Made by a program: the position numbers and the translations under genes
Notes under the pieces: model-generated
Told to the model about the DNA's origin: nothing
Databases searched by the model: none
What the model saw: the letters and a program-made list of their open reading frames with translations, nothing else
IMG/VR virus record: IMGVR_UViG_3300014962_000002
Coordinates: 1-34,130 of that record
Source: a virus
Length of the DNA: 34,130 nt
Reading direction: 5' to 3' (one strand)
Part shown: piece after piece, positions 2,588 through 34,130 of the stretch
How positions within the stretch are numbered: the stretch's first letter is position 1
How the letters are laid out: each line of letters begins with the position of its first letter

Positions 2588-3048
2588 AAGTTAAATTTCA
2601 GTATGCCTTGATTGTAAAGTAATGCCTCTGTTTTTCTACGCCTAGTCAATCCTTCTAATACCTTACCGCCTCCTTTATTCCATTTCAAGAACTCAGTTTC
2701 AATTTTCAAAGCAGATCCTTTTTTATTAACTTCTCTTAAAAGATTTGATTTTTCTAAGTTGCCCAAACCACAATTATAAGCAAATGAAACTAAGGCATCA
2801 AACTCGCATTGCAGTAATTCACGCTTTACTAATTTATCCACGCCTTGAGCAAATTTCAATACAATATTAGGTAGTAAATCTTCCGCTTGTTTTAAAGTTA
2901 TCCTATCACCCATTTTAACGGGTTTACCATCAGCATAGAATGTATTTCCGAATCCAATAGTAATAATTTTACTAGGGCATAAATACGCTTCTAGTTTGCA
3001 TCCCTCATAGTATTTAATTACATTATAACATGAATTGCTTGGAATCAT
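2584..3048 (-). CDS. endolysin, GH24 (T4/lambda-type) lysozyme
   Basis: YEG..LEAY......TIGFG near the N-terminus, then FDALVSFAYNCG and LEGLTRRRKTEALL. Confidence 0.85.
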   Translation of the reverse strand: MIPSNSCYNVIKYYEGCKLEAYLCPSKIITIGFGNTFYADGKPVKMGDRITLKQAEDLLPNIVLKFAQGVDKLVKRELLQCEFDALVSFAYNCGLGNLEKSNLLREVNKKGSALKIETEFLKWNKGGGKVLEGLTRRRKTEALLYNQGILKFNF

Positions 3049-3203
3049 AGTTTAACTTTTGTTTCGTGTATTGGAAATCTTATTTCTTGAAATTCAACTA
3101 TATAAACGGGTTCTGAATAGCTTATTTTAACAACCTTAGAACCTTTAGGAATTAAAACTCTCTTCTTATTGTGCCATGCGTTAACGTCTTCAATTAAAAT
3201 CAT
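3045..3203 (-). CDS. hypothetical protein, 52 aa, not in the ORF track
   Basis: Hand translation gives MILIEDVNAWHNKKRVLIPKGSKVVKISYSEPVYIVEFQEIRFPIHETKVKL. ATGA overlaps at both ends (with the 3200-3703 stop and the lysozyme start) fill the apparent gap. Confidence 0.5.
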   Translation of the reverse strand: MILIEDVNAWHNKKRVLIPKGSKVVKISYSEPVYIVEFQEIRFPIHETKVKL

Positions 3204-3703
3204 CTTCTTTGGTTAAAATGAAACACGACAAATATCACCAACATAGCAAAGCCAATTATAGACCATTTAACAGCGTTATTTTTACTCTCTAATACTTTAT
3301 ACATCTCGGCATCTAATCTGTCAGCCTTGCGCTTGTAAAGCCCTAAACTGAATGTATCTTTCTTTATTATTGTTGTAACCTTTGTGAAGGTATCCACTCG
3401 ATAACGATTGATGTACTTCTGGACTTTTACTATTCTTTCTTTTGCTGAATCACAATCAACCTGAGTAAATAAAGTATCGTGCAACTCAGCCCCTTTCAAA
3501 TAAATAAATGAATCTTTTGTTTTTACTTCAATCTTACTCCCACAATACTCAGCTACATAAAATGGGTATTTACGTTCCATTCTAGCCATTTTCTTAACCG
3601 GATTACCGCAAGATGAAAGACTAACTAAAACGCCTAAAATGAAGATAAGAAAGCAAATAGCTATCCCAAAATAGATACCGTATTTAATTCTCTGACTTCT
3701 CAT
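3200..3703 (-). CDS. candidate unimolecular spanin (lipoprotein signal plus C-terminal TM helix)
   Basis: N-terminal basic/hydrophobic signal ending in the lipobox LSSC; C-terminal hydrophobic helix WSIIGFAMLVIFVVFHF; located between holin-like genes and the endolysin. Confidence 0.5.
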   Translation of the reverse strand: MRSQRIKYGIYFGIAICFLIFILGVLVSLSSCGNPVKKMARMERKYPFYVAEYCGSKIEVKTKDSFIYLKGAELHDTLFTQVDCDSAKERIVKVQKYINRYRVDTFTKVTTIIKKDTFSLGLYKRKADRLDAEMYKVLESKNNAVKWSIIGFAMLVIFVVFHFNQRR

Positions 3704-20952: not shown

Positions 20953-22128
20953 TTACAAAACATTTATCGAATAATTACCTCTATTTAATCCTTCATTGTA
21001 TCCACTCCATGCCAAAGCTAAGGACATAACACAATCGTCATGGAAGCCTTGAGGTGCGCCATACTTTACGCCCGTTGCTGTATATTGATATTCAATGACT
21101 TCCAATTCTTCTTTTATGATTCCTTCGGGTATTCCAATCTTTTGTTGGTGAATAGCTGAGGATAACTGCAACATCATTTGCTGTTTGGATTGACTTGTGA
21201 ACTTCACGCCTTGCACGTCTAAGTTATCTTCTTGTAATTCTTCGCATATAGGGTCGCCTACACCAGTACTATCTATTCTTATCGGACATCTAGGCAATTG
21301 CTTTATAGTCTCCTTAGTAGCCTTCCAATCCCTTTGAAACCTATCAAAATAGCAAACAACTCCAAACCTATCCAACCCTATAATTACTGTATAATCCACA
21401 CTTTTAGCCAAATCTATTCCAAAGATAATAGGTGAATGATTCGAAATAGGTAAAACACAATTAGCAATCTTATCGAGTCCAAAAGGATTATCTGCATTCT
21501 CCGCAGGATTAGCCATGTACTCTTGTTCAAAGACTGCCGTTGGTAATTGGCTTCTTGCGTCGTCTATTTCTTCTTTAGGTATATAAGGATTCTCATAAGT
21601 TGAAAACTTAAACGACTTCCAATCTTTATCAGATAATCCTTTTAAGTATAACGAATAAGTAAACTTCTTACCTCTTGGAGTGCTTAGAAATATCCCATCG
21701 CCTTTATAGTCTGTTAATGTAGGTCTTATAGAATTTAGCCAACCTTCTTGCAAGTTCTTGATGTAATCGCACTCGTCCATTATAACCCTATGGAACTTAC
21801 GACCTCTGAAACTATCTAATCTTTCACCGGTGAAAAACTGAATATACCCACCAGTTAATAAAGTAATTACTAAGTCCGACTTGTTAGACGTATAAACATT
21901 GTCGGGCAATCTGTTTGTTAACTCTTCAAAGAAGTATTTAGCTAGTAAGTAAGTTGGAGTAACATAAGCAACCGACTTTCCTTGTAATGCTGTTTTAATT
22001 GCTTCCGATTGACTTATTAACGACTTACCCCACCTCCTACCACACATAAGAACTCTAAACCTTGTCGTATCTGCAAGGAATAGTTTTTGAGTATCATGTG
22101 GTCTTGGTAGTTTTATTTCAATCTTCAT
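20953..22128 (-). CDS. terL: terminase large subunit
   Basis: Walker A-like CGRRWGKS, Walker B-like RVIMDECD, and C-terminal RNase-H-like nuclease residues (GIDLA, IDSTGVGD, HDDCVMSLALA). Confidence 0.85.
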   Translation of the reverse strand: MKIEIKLPRPHDTQKLFLADTTRFRVLMCGRRWGKSLISQSEAIKTALQGKSVAYVTPTYLLAKYFFEELTNRLPDNVYTSNKSDLVITLLTGGYIQFFTGERLDSFRGRKFHRVIMDECDYIKNLQEGWLNSIRPTLTDYKGDGIFLSTPRGKKFTYSLYLKGLSDKDWKSFKFSTYENPYIPKEEIDDARSQLPTAVFEQEYMANPAENADNPFGLDKIANCVLPISNHSPIIFGIDLAKSVDYTVIIGLDRFGVVCYFDRFQRDWKATKETIKQLPRCPIRIDSTGVGDPICEELQEDNLDVQGVKFTSQSKQQMMLQLSSAIHQQKIGIPEGIIKEELEVIEYQYTATGVKYGAPQGFHDDCVMSLALAWSGYNEGLNRGNYSINVL

Positions 22129-22817: not shown

Positions 22818-23053
22818 AGTTTTAATTTTTGGATTATTCTAATTGCAATCGGTGATATTATACCCGAAGCGGAAACATTTAATAAGAAATACACAAAGTC
22901 ATAATTTGCGCTAACAATGTGAAGTAAAGCCACGATATAAACGGGTAAGCACACCGCACAGTTAAACGGCTTACGCTTAAAATAACTCAAGTTGCCATAC
23001 CTGTTGAACTCTATCAGATATATCGTCAACATTATTGCCGTTAAGGATATCAT
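22814..23053 (-). CDS. small membrane protein, 79 aa
   Basis: Hydrophobic segments; overlaps the 3' end of the sigma-like gene by 77 nt in another frame, so the start is uncertain. Confidence 0.4.
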   Translation of the reverse strand: MISLTAIMLTIYLIEFNRYGNLSYFKRKPFNCAVCLPVYIVALLHIVSANYDFVYFLLNVSASGIISPIAIRIIQKLKL

Positions 23054-23483
23054 TTGTTATGATTTTAGATTCTAAATGTGATTTTACTTTGTTGATTATG
23101 TTTAGTAATGTCTTTCTCGGTACCTGTGATTTTCGGCTAAACTCTGAAATATTTTCACCGAATGCGTAATCCTCAAAGATTCTACGTTCAACGCTATTTA
23201 AAGGCTCAAGGCACTCGAGTAAGCGGTCAATCCTTGCATCTATATTAATCTCGCTTGCTTCGTCTTCTTTGATATTAAGGACATTACTATTGAAGTCAAT
23301 CGGATCTATTCTTGGATTCAGATACTTTCTTTTAAAATCACTGCCTCTTGTAAAGTTCATTAATGTTCTTACACAATACCATTGCATCCAACCTTCATTA
23401 ATACCTCGTTCTATAAAACCTTTGTCTTTCTCTTCTTTTTCGTAAAGTGATATAAATAACTCATGTTTTGCATCATGTTGCAA
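22977..23483 (-). CDS. ECF/sigma-70-like late transcription regulator
   Basis: Region-2-like W.WYCVRTLMNFTRGSDFKRKY and region-4-like HTH LNSVERRIFEDYAFGENISEFSRKSQVPRKTLLNIINKVKSHL. It is the first gene of the late arm, directly upstream of the terminase genes. The start is TTG with no in-frame upstream ATG (the frame is open to 23573). Confidence 0.5.
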   Translation of the reverse strand: MQHDAKHELFISLYEKEEKDKGFIERGINEGWMQWYCVRTLMNFTRGSDFKRKYLNPRIDPIDFNSNVLNIKEDEASEINIDARIDRLLECLEPLNSVERRIFEDYAFGENISEFSRKSQVPRKTLLNIINKVKSHLESKIITNDILNGNNVDDISDRVQQVWQLELF

Positions 23484-23568
23484 GTCAATGGGGATAAGAT
23501 TACGGATAGCTTGGTTTATGTCGCCATCTCGGTATAATGTTTCTATGATTACTTGTATCTCGATTATG

Positions 23569-23576
23569 CAAAGTTA
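23569..23576 (-). promoter_or_regulatory. Candidate -7 box (TAacTTTG on the minus strand) for the sigma-like gene
   Basis: Matches TAnnTTTG, but the -33 region reads TTTT rather than TTTG. Confidence 0.3.
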
Positions 23577-23628
23577 TCCTATCTATTCTTATTAAAATAA
23601 GAAATATTTTTTCTTTTTTGAAAAAAAA

Positions 23629-23659
23629 TTTGCAGATTTAAAAAGTTGTTCTATCTTTG
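23629..23659 (+). promoter_or_regulatory. Bacteroidota-type promoter P-early1 (TTTG-N19-TAtcTTTG)
   Basis: TTTG at 23629-23632 and TATCTTTG at 23652-23659 with a 19-nt spacer. About 45 nt is shared with the promoter at 33627-33657. Confidence 0.75.
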
Positions 23660-23664
23660 TGTTA

Positions 23665-23801
23665 TCAAAGTGAAAGGGATACAATCACAGAGACGGTAAG
23701 CTACCCACCGAAGCAAGAAGATAGCCCCAAACCACACATAAGGTACACGGGAAAATACTCAGGAACAAGCCGCTGAAAAGTGTTGGCAACTGCAAATGAA
23801 A
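23665..23801 (+). ncRNA. Untranslated, compositionally atypical leader RNA upstream of the ribozyme (5' end inferred)
   Basis: No start-codon-initiated ORF. Hand count of 23671-23800 gives 60/130 G+C and 16/130 T. Confidence 0.45.
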
Positions 23802-23859
23802 GGTTAACTGATGAGTTCTTCAATAGACGAAACTAGGGTTAAAATCCCTAGTCTTAACC
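23802..23859 (+). ncRNA. Type I hammerhead self-cleaving ribozyme motif
   Basis: Stem I ggttaa (23802-07) pairs with ttaacc (23854-59). CUGAUGA is at 23808-14. Stem II is G23815-C23828 plus 2 bp. GAA is at 23829-31. Stem III is 7 bp, actaggg (23832-38) with ccctagt (23846-52). The GUC triplet has C17 at 23853. Confidence 0.8.
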
Positions 23860-23875
23860 AATAAAACTAACTAAA

Positions 23876-24133
23876 ATGAAATGTCAATTAGTAAACGAAG
23901 GAACAAAAAACGCAATGAGATTACAATCTATTGGTGTTGTTTTAGGAACACCTGCATCAGAAATTAAAGAAGGTGATTTCTTAATGTGGAATTTTGGCTC
24001 AGTTTATTCAGTAAATTCTATATTAAAAGAAACTGATAAAATGATTGTTATATCAACATCTCCAAAAGGAAGTGATACAGTCTATGAGCAAAAATTAAAG
24101 AAATCAAGATTAGTATGCAAATTAGAAAACTAA
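23876..24133 (+). CDS. hypothetical early protein, 85 aa
   Basis: First ORF after the promoter/ribozyme. Confidence 0.65.
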   Translation: MKCQLVNEGTKNAMRLQSIGVVLGTPASEIKEGDFLMWNFGSVYSVNSILKETDKMIVISTSPKGSDTVYEQKLKKSRLVCKLEN

Positions 24134-24143
24134 GATAAAGGGG

Positions 24144-24171
24144 TGCAGCATCCTAACAACTGCAATTTTTT
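24144..24171 (+). terminator. Weak hairpin plus T-run after the first early gene
   Basis: tgcag (24144-48) pairs with ctgca (24160-64), with an 11-nt loop, followed by tttttt. Confidence 0.3.
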
Positions 24172-24192
24172 AAATTTTAAAACTAAATAACA

Positions 24193-24363
24193 ATGACAAA
24201 AGAATTAACACATGTTTTAATTGTCTATTGCATCCTATCTATAACATGGTTGTGTATTAGATGGTCAAAAGACAGATTTAAAAATGAAATGATAAAAATA
24301 GTTTTATTCTTTATTTTTTTAATTGGTCTTTTAATAGAACTTAAACTATTTAATATTATATAA
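24193..24363 (+). CDS. small membrane protein, 56 aa, not in the ORF track
   Basis: Hand translation gives MTKELTHVLIVYCILSITWLCIRWSKDRFKNEMIKIVLFFIFLIGLLIELKLFNII, with two hydrophobic helices. Confidence 0.5.
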   Translation: MTKELTHVLIVYCILSITWLCIRWSKDRFKNEMIKIVLFFIFLIGLLIELKLFNII

Positions 24364-24365
24364 AC

Positions 24366-24449
24366 ATGGACAAAGTAACTCGCTTTTTCGTTCGCATCCT
24401 TATAATTGGATTGCCGCCTTTTATTTTATATCACATTTTTTTAAACTAA
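24366..24449 (+). CDS. micro-ORF, 27 aa, hydrophobic
   Basis: MDKVTRFFVRILIIGLPPFILYHIFLN; starts 2 nt after the previous stop. Confidence 0.3.
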   Translation: MDKVTRFFVRILIIGLPPFILYHIFLN

Positions 24450-29193: not shown

Positions 29194-29269
29194 GCCTCTA
29201 AAGGCTTAGTGTGTTGGTAACATAGGTTATCGGCAGTCTTACCACTAAGCATCTTTAGGGGCTTTTTTT
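29194..29269 (+). terminator. Long structured hairpin plus U-tract (terminator and/or 3' domain of a small RNA)
   Basis: cctctaaag (29195-203) pairs with ctttagggg (29253-61), gcttagtg (29204-11) with cactaagc (29243-50), and gtaa (29217-20) with ttac (29039+200=29239-42). The hairpin is followed by cttttttt. Confidence 0.7.
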
Positions 29270-29309
29270 ATCTCAAAAAGTTATTGGTATCCTTTAAACC
29301 ATTATTATT

Positions 29310-33626: not shown

Positions 33627-33657
33627 TTTGCAGTTTTAAAAGTTTAGTGTATCTTTG
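33627..33657 (+). promoter_or_regulatory. Bacteroidota-type promoter P-early2 (TTTG-N19-TAtcTTTG)
   Basis: TTTG at 33627-33630 and TATCTTTG at 33650-33657 with a 19-nt spacer; paralogous to 23629-23659. Confidence 0.75.
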
Positions 33658-33948: not shown

Positions 33949-34130
33949 ATGAAATCAATAGTAACAACTACAAACACTACCGAAATCAAAAATGCATTTC
34001 AAAACAAATTCGGGATGATAACAAGTAATACACCTGAAGTAAGAGATTCAGTAGCAAACTACGCAAAGTCTTTAGTAGCTAAACTTCATGAAGAAAAAAA
34101 CAAATCATTAAATAACAAAGCACTCGATTA
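33949..34130 (+). CDS. hypothetical protein, 61 aa, crossing the window junction (stop completed at nt 76-78)
   Basis: Open frame from ATG 33949 to the window end; continues in frame into the repeat copy at the window start. Confidence 0.6.
   Translation, partial: MKSIVTTTNTTEIKNAFQNKFGMITSNTPEVRDSVANYAKSLVAKLHEEKNKSLNNKALD
34054..34130. repeat. Terminal direct repeat, copy 2 (identical to 1-77)
   Basis: 77/77 nt identity. Confidence 0.95.

Follow-up and report, generated by a model that had tools for sequence, protein, structure and literature searches.

A conserved leader RNA at the head of an early phage operon, accompanied in every version found by a predicted self-cleaving ribozyme

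Why should the early operon of a phage begin with some 140 nucleotides in which no protein is evident, followed at once by a ribozyme motif that would cut them away before the first gene? The question is raised by positions 23660-23801 of the IMG/VR virus record IMGVR_UViG_3300014962_000002, the 34,130 nucleotides of which were analysed as a whole and are referred to here as the window. The first 77 nt (1-77) recur as the last 77 nt (34054-34130), so that the contig represents a whole phage genome of ~34 kb (~34,053 bp), assembled as a circle and either circular or terminally redundant. It has no close cultured relative, the highest TerL identity among GenBank phages being 32%. A leftward arm carries packaging and structural genes, including those for TerL (20953-22128), a gp3-like small terminase and a protein of 168 amino acids, while the rightward arm is a replication and recombination operon encoding a YqaJ exonuclease, an SNF2 helicase-methylase fusion, an O-like initiator, NinG and a protein matching PHROG 'exonuclease' families, the homolog of which in the related contig L156 has a Pfam ERF match. 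The leader and its ribozyme occupy the divergent region separating the two arms, facing the 168-amino acid protein gene (22977-23483, minus strand) which heads the packaging operon. Relatives of the 168-amino acid protein form only three clusters among 5.8 billion proteins. Its C-terminal part reads like a helix-turn-helix, the protein has a Pfam match below threshold (E 0.074) to the family of Mor transcription activators, and it may be a late-gene activator.

A motif scan for -33 and -7 boxes identified an early rightward promoter, TTTG-N19-TATCTTTG, at 23629-23659 on the plus strand, which we take to be of the Bacteroidota type on the published consensus of Bacteroidota promoters, and from which we infer a transcription start near A23664. 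The same promoter architecture lies upstream of every homologous leader. The scan also identified a second, near-identical copy, TTTGCAGTTTTAAAAGTTTAGTGTATCTTTG, at 33627-33657 on the same strand, with a gene directly behind it and neither leader nor ribozyme. The first transcribed bases of the leader, AUCAAAG.., resemble the AUCAA... of the transcript from this second promoter, and no second leader copy is found at another promoter of the genome in the fashion of nutL and nutR.

The interval between the early promoter and the hammerhead measures 142 nt (23660-23801), close to the 140 nt or so given in the preliminary description, and the hand counts reported there of an aberrant, A-rich and T-poor composition proved accurate, the values computed for 23671-23800 being 41.5% A, 23.1% C, 23.1% G and 12.3% T (46.2% G+C). 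For comparison, T makes up 33.4% and G+C 33.7% of the whole window. Among all 130-nt segments of this strand just 0.035% are equally T-poor, and the strand minimum, 11.5% T in the segment starting at 23666, falls in the same region. Leaders of the relatives described below contain 14-22% T and 35-43% A, with a G+C content exceeding their own genome average, and the extreme T-poverty of the window is the upper end of this family tendency. No ORF starting with ATG or GTG is present in the leader. Its single open frame, 39 codons with a TTG start (23657-23776), begins within the -7 box and was considered as a small protein gene with a non-canonical start; this was rejected, since five of eight relatives carry a stop in the frame and a 2-nt indel shifts it. 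On neither strand does any frame stay open throughout the relatives, and with the TTG frame interrupted and shifted the leader is judged non-coding, as had been proposed.

Directly behind the leader, positions 23802-23859 contain all the core bases of a type I hammerhead: CUGAUGA (23808-23814), GAAA (23829-23832) and GUC (23851-23853). Stem I (6 bp) joins 23802-23807 with 23854-23859, stem II (3 bp) lies within 23815-23828 and stem III (6 bp) within 23833-23851. With this core and these three helices, stem I being the open one, the element is a type I hammerhead by sequence, putatively self-cleaving, and cleavage is predicted 3′ of C23853. The Rfam model matched best is the RAGATH-1 hammerhead (RF03152), with 32.8 bits and an E value of 0.0018 in a local search, under the gathering score of 56.3. 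The match begins at 23783, within the conserved part of the leader, and in the alignment to the model 23783-23800 fall on an accessory 5′ hairpin, at the cost of a 5-nt deletion and one non-standard pair. The bases so aligned belong to the leader, as its invariant 3′ end, and precede twisters too in five relatives; the remainder of the leader matches nothing. Searches for RAGATH motifs rest on the tendency of ribozyme classes to share genomic contexts, and such motifs neighbour hammerhead and twister ribozymes. The hammerhead is the only ribozyme-like match at E ≤ 1 in an Rfam search of the whole 34 kb genome, which argues against ribozymes serving this phage as a general device for operon cutting.

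Searches with the neighbouring proteins (the 168-amino acid protein and TerL) brought up relatives with the divergent arrangement preserved, on metagenomic contigs of Logan, ENA and JGI. Nine distinct versions of the leader were identified at 17 loci, always at the same site between the divergent 168-amino acid protein gene, which accompanies the leader in every case, and the early operon. The versions are those of the window; L010; L053; L146-L149 with L151-L153; L154/L155; L156/L157; L158; L159/L280; and L279. They represent effectively three to four independent lineages of a small clade of uncultured metagenomic phages. A pattern scan of JGI metagenomes gave one true match, L053, among 27; exact and degenerate leader patterns gave no match or chance matches only among the IMG/VR matches listed (at least 119 in the last scan) and chance matches only in GTDB genomes. 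No close DNA relatives were found among GenBank phages, and nhmmer found no leader in 80 phages with 60-65% identical TerL; in the one of these inspected, L064, the genes upstream of TerL stand in another arrangement.

Comparison of the nine versions divides the leader into a variable 5′ part (23660-23694), which differs in sequence and length (35-65 nt) among relatives, a core of 101 nt (23695-23795; 99-107 nt in relatives) running from GGUAAG to GUGUUGGCAACUGCAA and conserved in blocks, and an A-rich spacer between core and ribozyme (23796-23801). Between the window and L146 the core is 69% identical, as compared to 73% for TerL DNA, 47% for third codon positions of TerL and 33% for the adjacent promoter-side spacer; between the window and L010 the corresponding values are 86, 84, 62 and 61%. 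A core about as well conserved as TerL DNA, and far better than silent sites or spacer, indicates purifying selection comparable to that on a conserved protein gene. Absence of the region from close relatives that retain the flanking genes had been named in the preliminary description as an observation that would count against the element; the comparison was made and the element was retained. Around it the genomes are strongly mosaic, as L154/L155, L159 and L280 keep the leader and the 168-amino acid neighbour with a swapped packaging module, in which a ParB-like gene, a DNA methylase and a Terminase_3 replace the gp3/Terminase_6 pair.

The earlier expectation of a largely unstructured RNA was confirmed, leader plus ribozyme (23660-23860) having a minimum free energy of -36.2 kcal/mol where shuffles give -37.1 (z = +0.24) and the core alone folding with z = +1.44. 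Within this weak overall fold one hairpin, P1 (23700-23725), is backed by covariation. Its 6-bp stem (23700-23705/23720-23725) occurs in three versions, GCUACC/GAUAGC, GUUAAC/GUUAAC and GUGAGC/GUUCGC, with 95.8% of cells paired and two of the six pairs changed on both sides; when the partner strand is shifted, pairing of the whole tested structure falls to 13-40%. The 14-nt loop is almost invariant, CACC(G/U)AAGCAAGA-N. P1 displaces the local hairpin GGUA-AGC-UACC (23695-23705) proposed at the outset, which overlaps it and is broken by GGUAAGUUAACC in relatives. A candidate hairpin P3, GCCGC/GUGUUGGC (23769-23787), shows one-sided changes and a loop-length indel; its terminal loop has 6, 7 or 15 nt, and the 9-nt insertion of L146 falls exactly inside the loop. 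An alternative long-range helix of CCACAC (23732-23737) with GUGUUGG (23780-23786) would exclude P3 and is equally compatible with the alignment. Neither P3 nor this alternative contains a double covariation, and with one-sided changes only in effectively three to four lineages every helix except P1 is tentative.

A predicted self-cleaving ribozyme lies 2-9 nt 3′ of the core in nine of nine versions, in three architectures, all matches in the window and relatives scoring under the Rfam gathering scores with all core nucleotides present. Type I hammerheads follow the leader in the window, L154 and L156. Five versions have a type-P1 twister (33-39 bits, E down to 2.7e-5) of two subtypes, one with an extra hairpin (L010, L053, L279) and one shorter (L158, L159). 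In the L146 group the ribozyme is a type III hammerhead (Rfam Hammerhead_3, 35.1 bits, E 4e-6). Ribozyme stems show compensatory changes, twister P1 being AUAG/CUAU or AAAG/CUUU and hammerhead stem II being GUU/GAC or GAUU/AAUC, with compensatory differences between the window and L154/L156. Near-identical leaders can precede different ribozymes, a hammerhead in L154 but a twister in L279, and a hammerhead in L156 but a twister in L158. Predicted cuts differ in position. The type I hammerhead would cut at its 3′ side, leaving the ribozyme on the leader and starting the mRNA 22 nt before the AUG, whereas twister and type III hammerhead would cut at their 5′ side, placing the ribozyme on the mRNA and ending the leader ~7-13 nt past the core. 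The species of ~190 nt ending at 23853 that had been predicted from the window would thus be expected of members with type I hammerheads, but not of those with twisters or the type III hammerhead. On these predictions the sole outcome common to the three architectures is that leader and mRNA come apart.

In the leader-less relatives, which are few loci, a regular-expression scan for hammerhead and twister motifs detected no ribozyme. In L004-L007 some 20 nt separate a similar promoter from the start codon of the gene homologous to the window's first, with leader and ribozyme both absent, and in L011, which encodes a 43%-identical homolog of the 168-amino acid neighbour, the promoter leads straight into the gene. 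The gene downstream varies too, six different small genes taking first place across the versions and none in L156. The same leader, followed by three architectures with different cut positions and a variable gene, and no ribozyme detected in its absence, together point to one selected outcome, detachment of the leader. Cutting the leader free of the early mRNA thus appears to be what the ribozymes are selected for.

We prefer to read the region as a non-coding RNA gene, specific to this lineage, that is joined to an early operon at its 5′ end. The early promoter (23629-23659) would transcribe the leader of ~140 nt, and the ribozyme a few nucleotides past the core would cut the nascent transcript and so serve as the leader's 3′-end maker. 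Cleavage by hammerhead and twister ribozymes leaves a 2′,3′-cyclic phosphate on the upstream product and a 5′-OH on the downstream one. The freed leader would accordingly carry a 5′ triphosphate and a 2′,3′-cyclic phosphate, and the early mRNA would go on from a 5′-OH with a short A-rich translation leader of its own. A single strong promoter could in this way supply both an abundant small RNA and full-length operon mRNA with neither a terminator nor host RNases; a terminator would starve the operon, and RNase sites would create a dependence on the host. That the leader is a discrete early RNA, released without a terminator and acting in trans, we hold with a probability of roughly 45%. Action in trans would most likely proceed through exposed, invariant single-stranded blocks, namely the P1 loop CACCNAAGCAAGA, ACAUAAGG and GUGUUGGC; we propose that the leader is kept U-poor and weakly folded so that it stays accessible. 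Invariant exposed blocks in a weakly folded RNA would fit a molecule read by a partner and not a compact fold. The narrower idea that the partner is a protein or RNA of the host, for which the leader would be a decoy or sponge (e.g. in anti-defence or host takeover) and for which this lineage keeps its hammerheads and twisters, is a possibility that we offer tentatively. The preliminary description had held that the leader may be a discrete RNA and not a simple 5′ UTR. Comparative evidence (conservation, covariation of P1 and a ribozyme in all versions) supports this, and with it a selected entity the boundary of which ribozyme cleavage would set, while in vivo cleavage, a stable product and action in trans are what we infer.

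Partial precedents exist for such an arrangement. The CI RNA of P4 and the C4 RNA of P1 and P7 are small regulatory RNAs cut from the 5′ leader of a co-transcribed operon; their processing depends on RNase P or host nucleases, and they fold well and pair with complementary sites on the same transcript. The leader of the window differs in having no such complementary sites within the phage, where the top matches of 12-15 nt are at chance level, and an antisense regulator of the P4 CI or P1 C4 type was rejected on the same ground. Theta ribozymes, which are HDV-like, adjoin phage tRNAs and were proposed as 3′-end makers replacing host RNases (Kienbeck et al. 2024, PMC10879173), and the phages that carry them appear to infect Bacteroidota or Bacillota (PMC10879173). 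There as here a phage non-coding RNA would receive its 3′ end from an adjacent self-cleaving ribozyme, although in that case the RNA is a tRNA and the ribozyme of the HDV-like class, whereas here there is no tRNA, the RNA belongs to no known family and it is fused to an mRNA.

Three other explanations were weighed, of which action of the leader in cis, with the ribozyme as a natural insulator, is the main one, although we consider it unlikely. The nascent leader would load a factor onto RNA polymerase (processive antitermination through a NusG paralogue, or an element like put or nut) or bind a regulator, after which the ribozyme would remove it and provide any downstream accessory gene with a standard short 5′ UTR. 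The leader is indeed promoter-proximal, at the head of an operon of ~5.5 kb, its P1 hairpin with the invariant loop resembles a protein-recruitment hairpin, and a conserved hairpin with a U-run at 24140-24171, which shares the 9-mer CAACUGCAA with the leader, would fit an antitermination role; a swappable downstream gene cassette is moreover the situation in which an insulator helps. Put of HK022 consists of two stable stem-loops, and put and lambda nut act while tethered to polymerase through the nascent transcript. Like these, the leader is a conserved RNA element that closely follows an early promoter of a phage and precedes a hairpin resembling a terminator, but it is weakly folded and predicted to be cut off, and the ribozyme would sever the very tether that put and nut RNAs need. 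Cis leaders such as riboswitches, nut and put are not known to need a ribozyme, yet one is present in every version here. The near-identical promoter at 33627-33657 has no leader, homologous genes elsewhere sit directly behind similar promoters, and a weakly folded leader lying at least 20 nt from the start codon gives little evident reason for its removal. In synthetic insulators of the RiboJ type, a ribozyme set before the translation start detaches an unwanted leader that derives from the promoter; the leader of the phage, by contrast, is conserved and co-occurs strictly with its ribozyme.

An improbable alternative is that selection acts on the end of the mRNA, a 5′-OH guarding the early message from 5′-end-dependent decay or sensing, in which case the leader would be sacrificial and recently inherited. 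It is an established mechanism that hammerhead and twister leave a 5′-OH. The haloviruses HF1 and HF2 offer a precedent for this explanation: a hammerhead stands 13 nt ahead of their first early gene, and the 5′ end mapped for the transcript coincides with the cleavage site (PMC3088659). The present locus resembles theirs in having a hammerhead a few nucleotides before the gene that opens an early polycistronic transcript (Perreault et al. 2011, PMC3088659); neither a conserved RNA upstream of the ribozyme nor an exchange of ribozyme class was described there, whereas here the upstream fragment is conserved. Protection of the mRNA end leaves unexplained the block-wise conservation of the leader (69%, as against 47% at silent sites and 33% in the spacer, window with L146), the covariation of P1, the absence of the ribozyme wherever the leader is missing, and the interchange of type I hammerheads, which would give the mRNA an unstructured 5′ end, with twisters, which would give it a folded one. 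Least probable is an allosteric ribozyme gated by a ligand- or protein-sensing leader through alternative pairing of its 3′ segment: the invariant GUGUUGG takes part in two mutually exclusive pairings and CUGCA in the leader of twister members is complementary to the 5′ strand (UGCAG) of twister P2, but this complementarity is absent for the hammerheads, three unrelated architectures would each need their own switching helix, neither alternative helix covaries, no Rfam aptamer matches and overall folding is weak.

The locus bears on a wider problem. Hammerhead, twister and related ribozymes occur by the hundreds in phage and prophage genomes. With the exception of glmS, the role of self-cleaving ribozymes in bacteria and phages is still described as largely unexplained (review PMC6765202). 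What is new here is a leader RNA family, present in no database, in which, by comparison of sequences, one conserved RNA is served by three predicted ribozyme architectures within a narrow clade. The locus is an unusually clean natural experiment, making the purpose of phage hammerheads and twisters directly testable on a construct of 250 bp. If the leader is a trans-acting RNA, phage ribozymes would have a defined job, allowing one promoter to yield a small RNA along with an mRNA, independently of terminators and RNases. The locus also suggests that conserved partner RNAs are worth seeking just upstream of other orphan phage ribozymes.

Searches for a known identity of the leader agreed with the earlier failure to place it in an RNA family. 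Rfam 15 gave no leader match in the window at gathering scores. At E ≤ 10 across 23400-24200 the leader was touched only by the 5′ edge of the hammerhead model, and at E ≤ 1 no leader match was obtained across the whole window or in relatives. ARAGORN called no tRNA or tmRNA in the window. A riboswitch or aptamer leader was rejected as only P1 covaries, folding z values lie between +0.2 and +1.4 and no terminator-like site was called across 23300-24400. The template repeat of a diversity-generating retroelement (DGR), considered in view of the A-rich, non-coding character of the leader, was likewise discarded: nhmmer and BLAST found no second copy, and no reverse transcriptase domain was present among the proteins scanned, a subset of the ORFs. 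A 12-nt identity was observed between the leader segment ACCACACAUAAG and the Walker-A codons (LMCG) of TerL at 22039-22050, so that TerL mRNA is perfectly complementary to the leader there. Antisense pairing with TerL was rejected; the match is explained by the conserved Walker-A peptide and decays in L146, while the leader persists with a different terminase. GUUGGCAACUGC may resemble the start of a Cas13b direct repeat, over only ~11 nt.

After cleavage the early mRNA would begin with a short A-rich 5′ UTR (23854-23875). A tract of the form UUAAC(C/U)AA..AAACUAA..AUG follows type I hammerheads and twisters, and the A-rich tract of the type III member is a different one. The first early gene of the window (23876-24133, plus strand) encodes 85 amino acids with no Pfam or PHROG match. 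Its homologs form 81 clusters in unrelated contexts, for instance beside a Rep_1 gene or behind an SSB gene (L001-L009), and this scatter suggests a mobile accessory gene. Beyond it lies the hairpin and U-run at 24140-24171 (plus strand), GGGG-UGCAG-CAUCCUAACAA-CUGCA-A-UUUUUU, with a loop of 11 nt, which is conserved behind three different first genes (in the window; in L053 and L159; and in L158). The 9-mer CAACUGCAA occurs both in the 3′ arm region of this element and at the end of the leader core (23787-23795), so that ribozyme and variable gene are bracketed by the same 9-mer. The element might act as a weak terminator, serve as a shared site of recognition or mark a boundary at which gene cassettes recombine; a terminator scan of 23300-24400 called no site, the loop being too long.

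Two further loci drew attention. In L010, at ~3000-3335 on the minus strand and downstream of the first early genes, two tRNA-like sequences with long inserts were observed, e.g. GGTCAGGTGGCGGAATTGGTAAACGC ... CAAGTTCAAATCTTGTCCTGACC, for which ARAGORN made zero tRNA calls. In the window, a long and very stable hairpin with a U-run behind it (29194-29272, plus strand; -38.2 kcal/mol, z = -4.66, 0 shuffles as stable) sits in a gap of 400 nt 3′ of the helicase-methylase gene, with a TAtaTTTG-like box just upstream, and is probably an operon terminator or a small-RNA gene. A regular-expression 'twister' hit near 29241 on the minus strand is the complement of this large hairpin and U-run and was set aside as no ribozyme. 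The hairpin carries GUGUGUUGGUAAC, recalling GUGUUGGCAAC of the leader.
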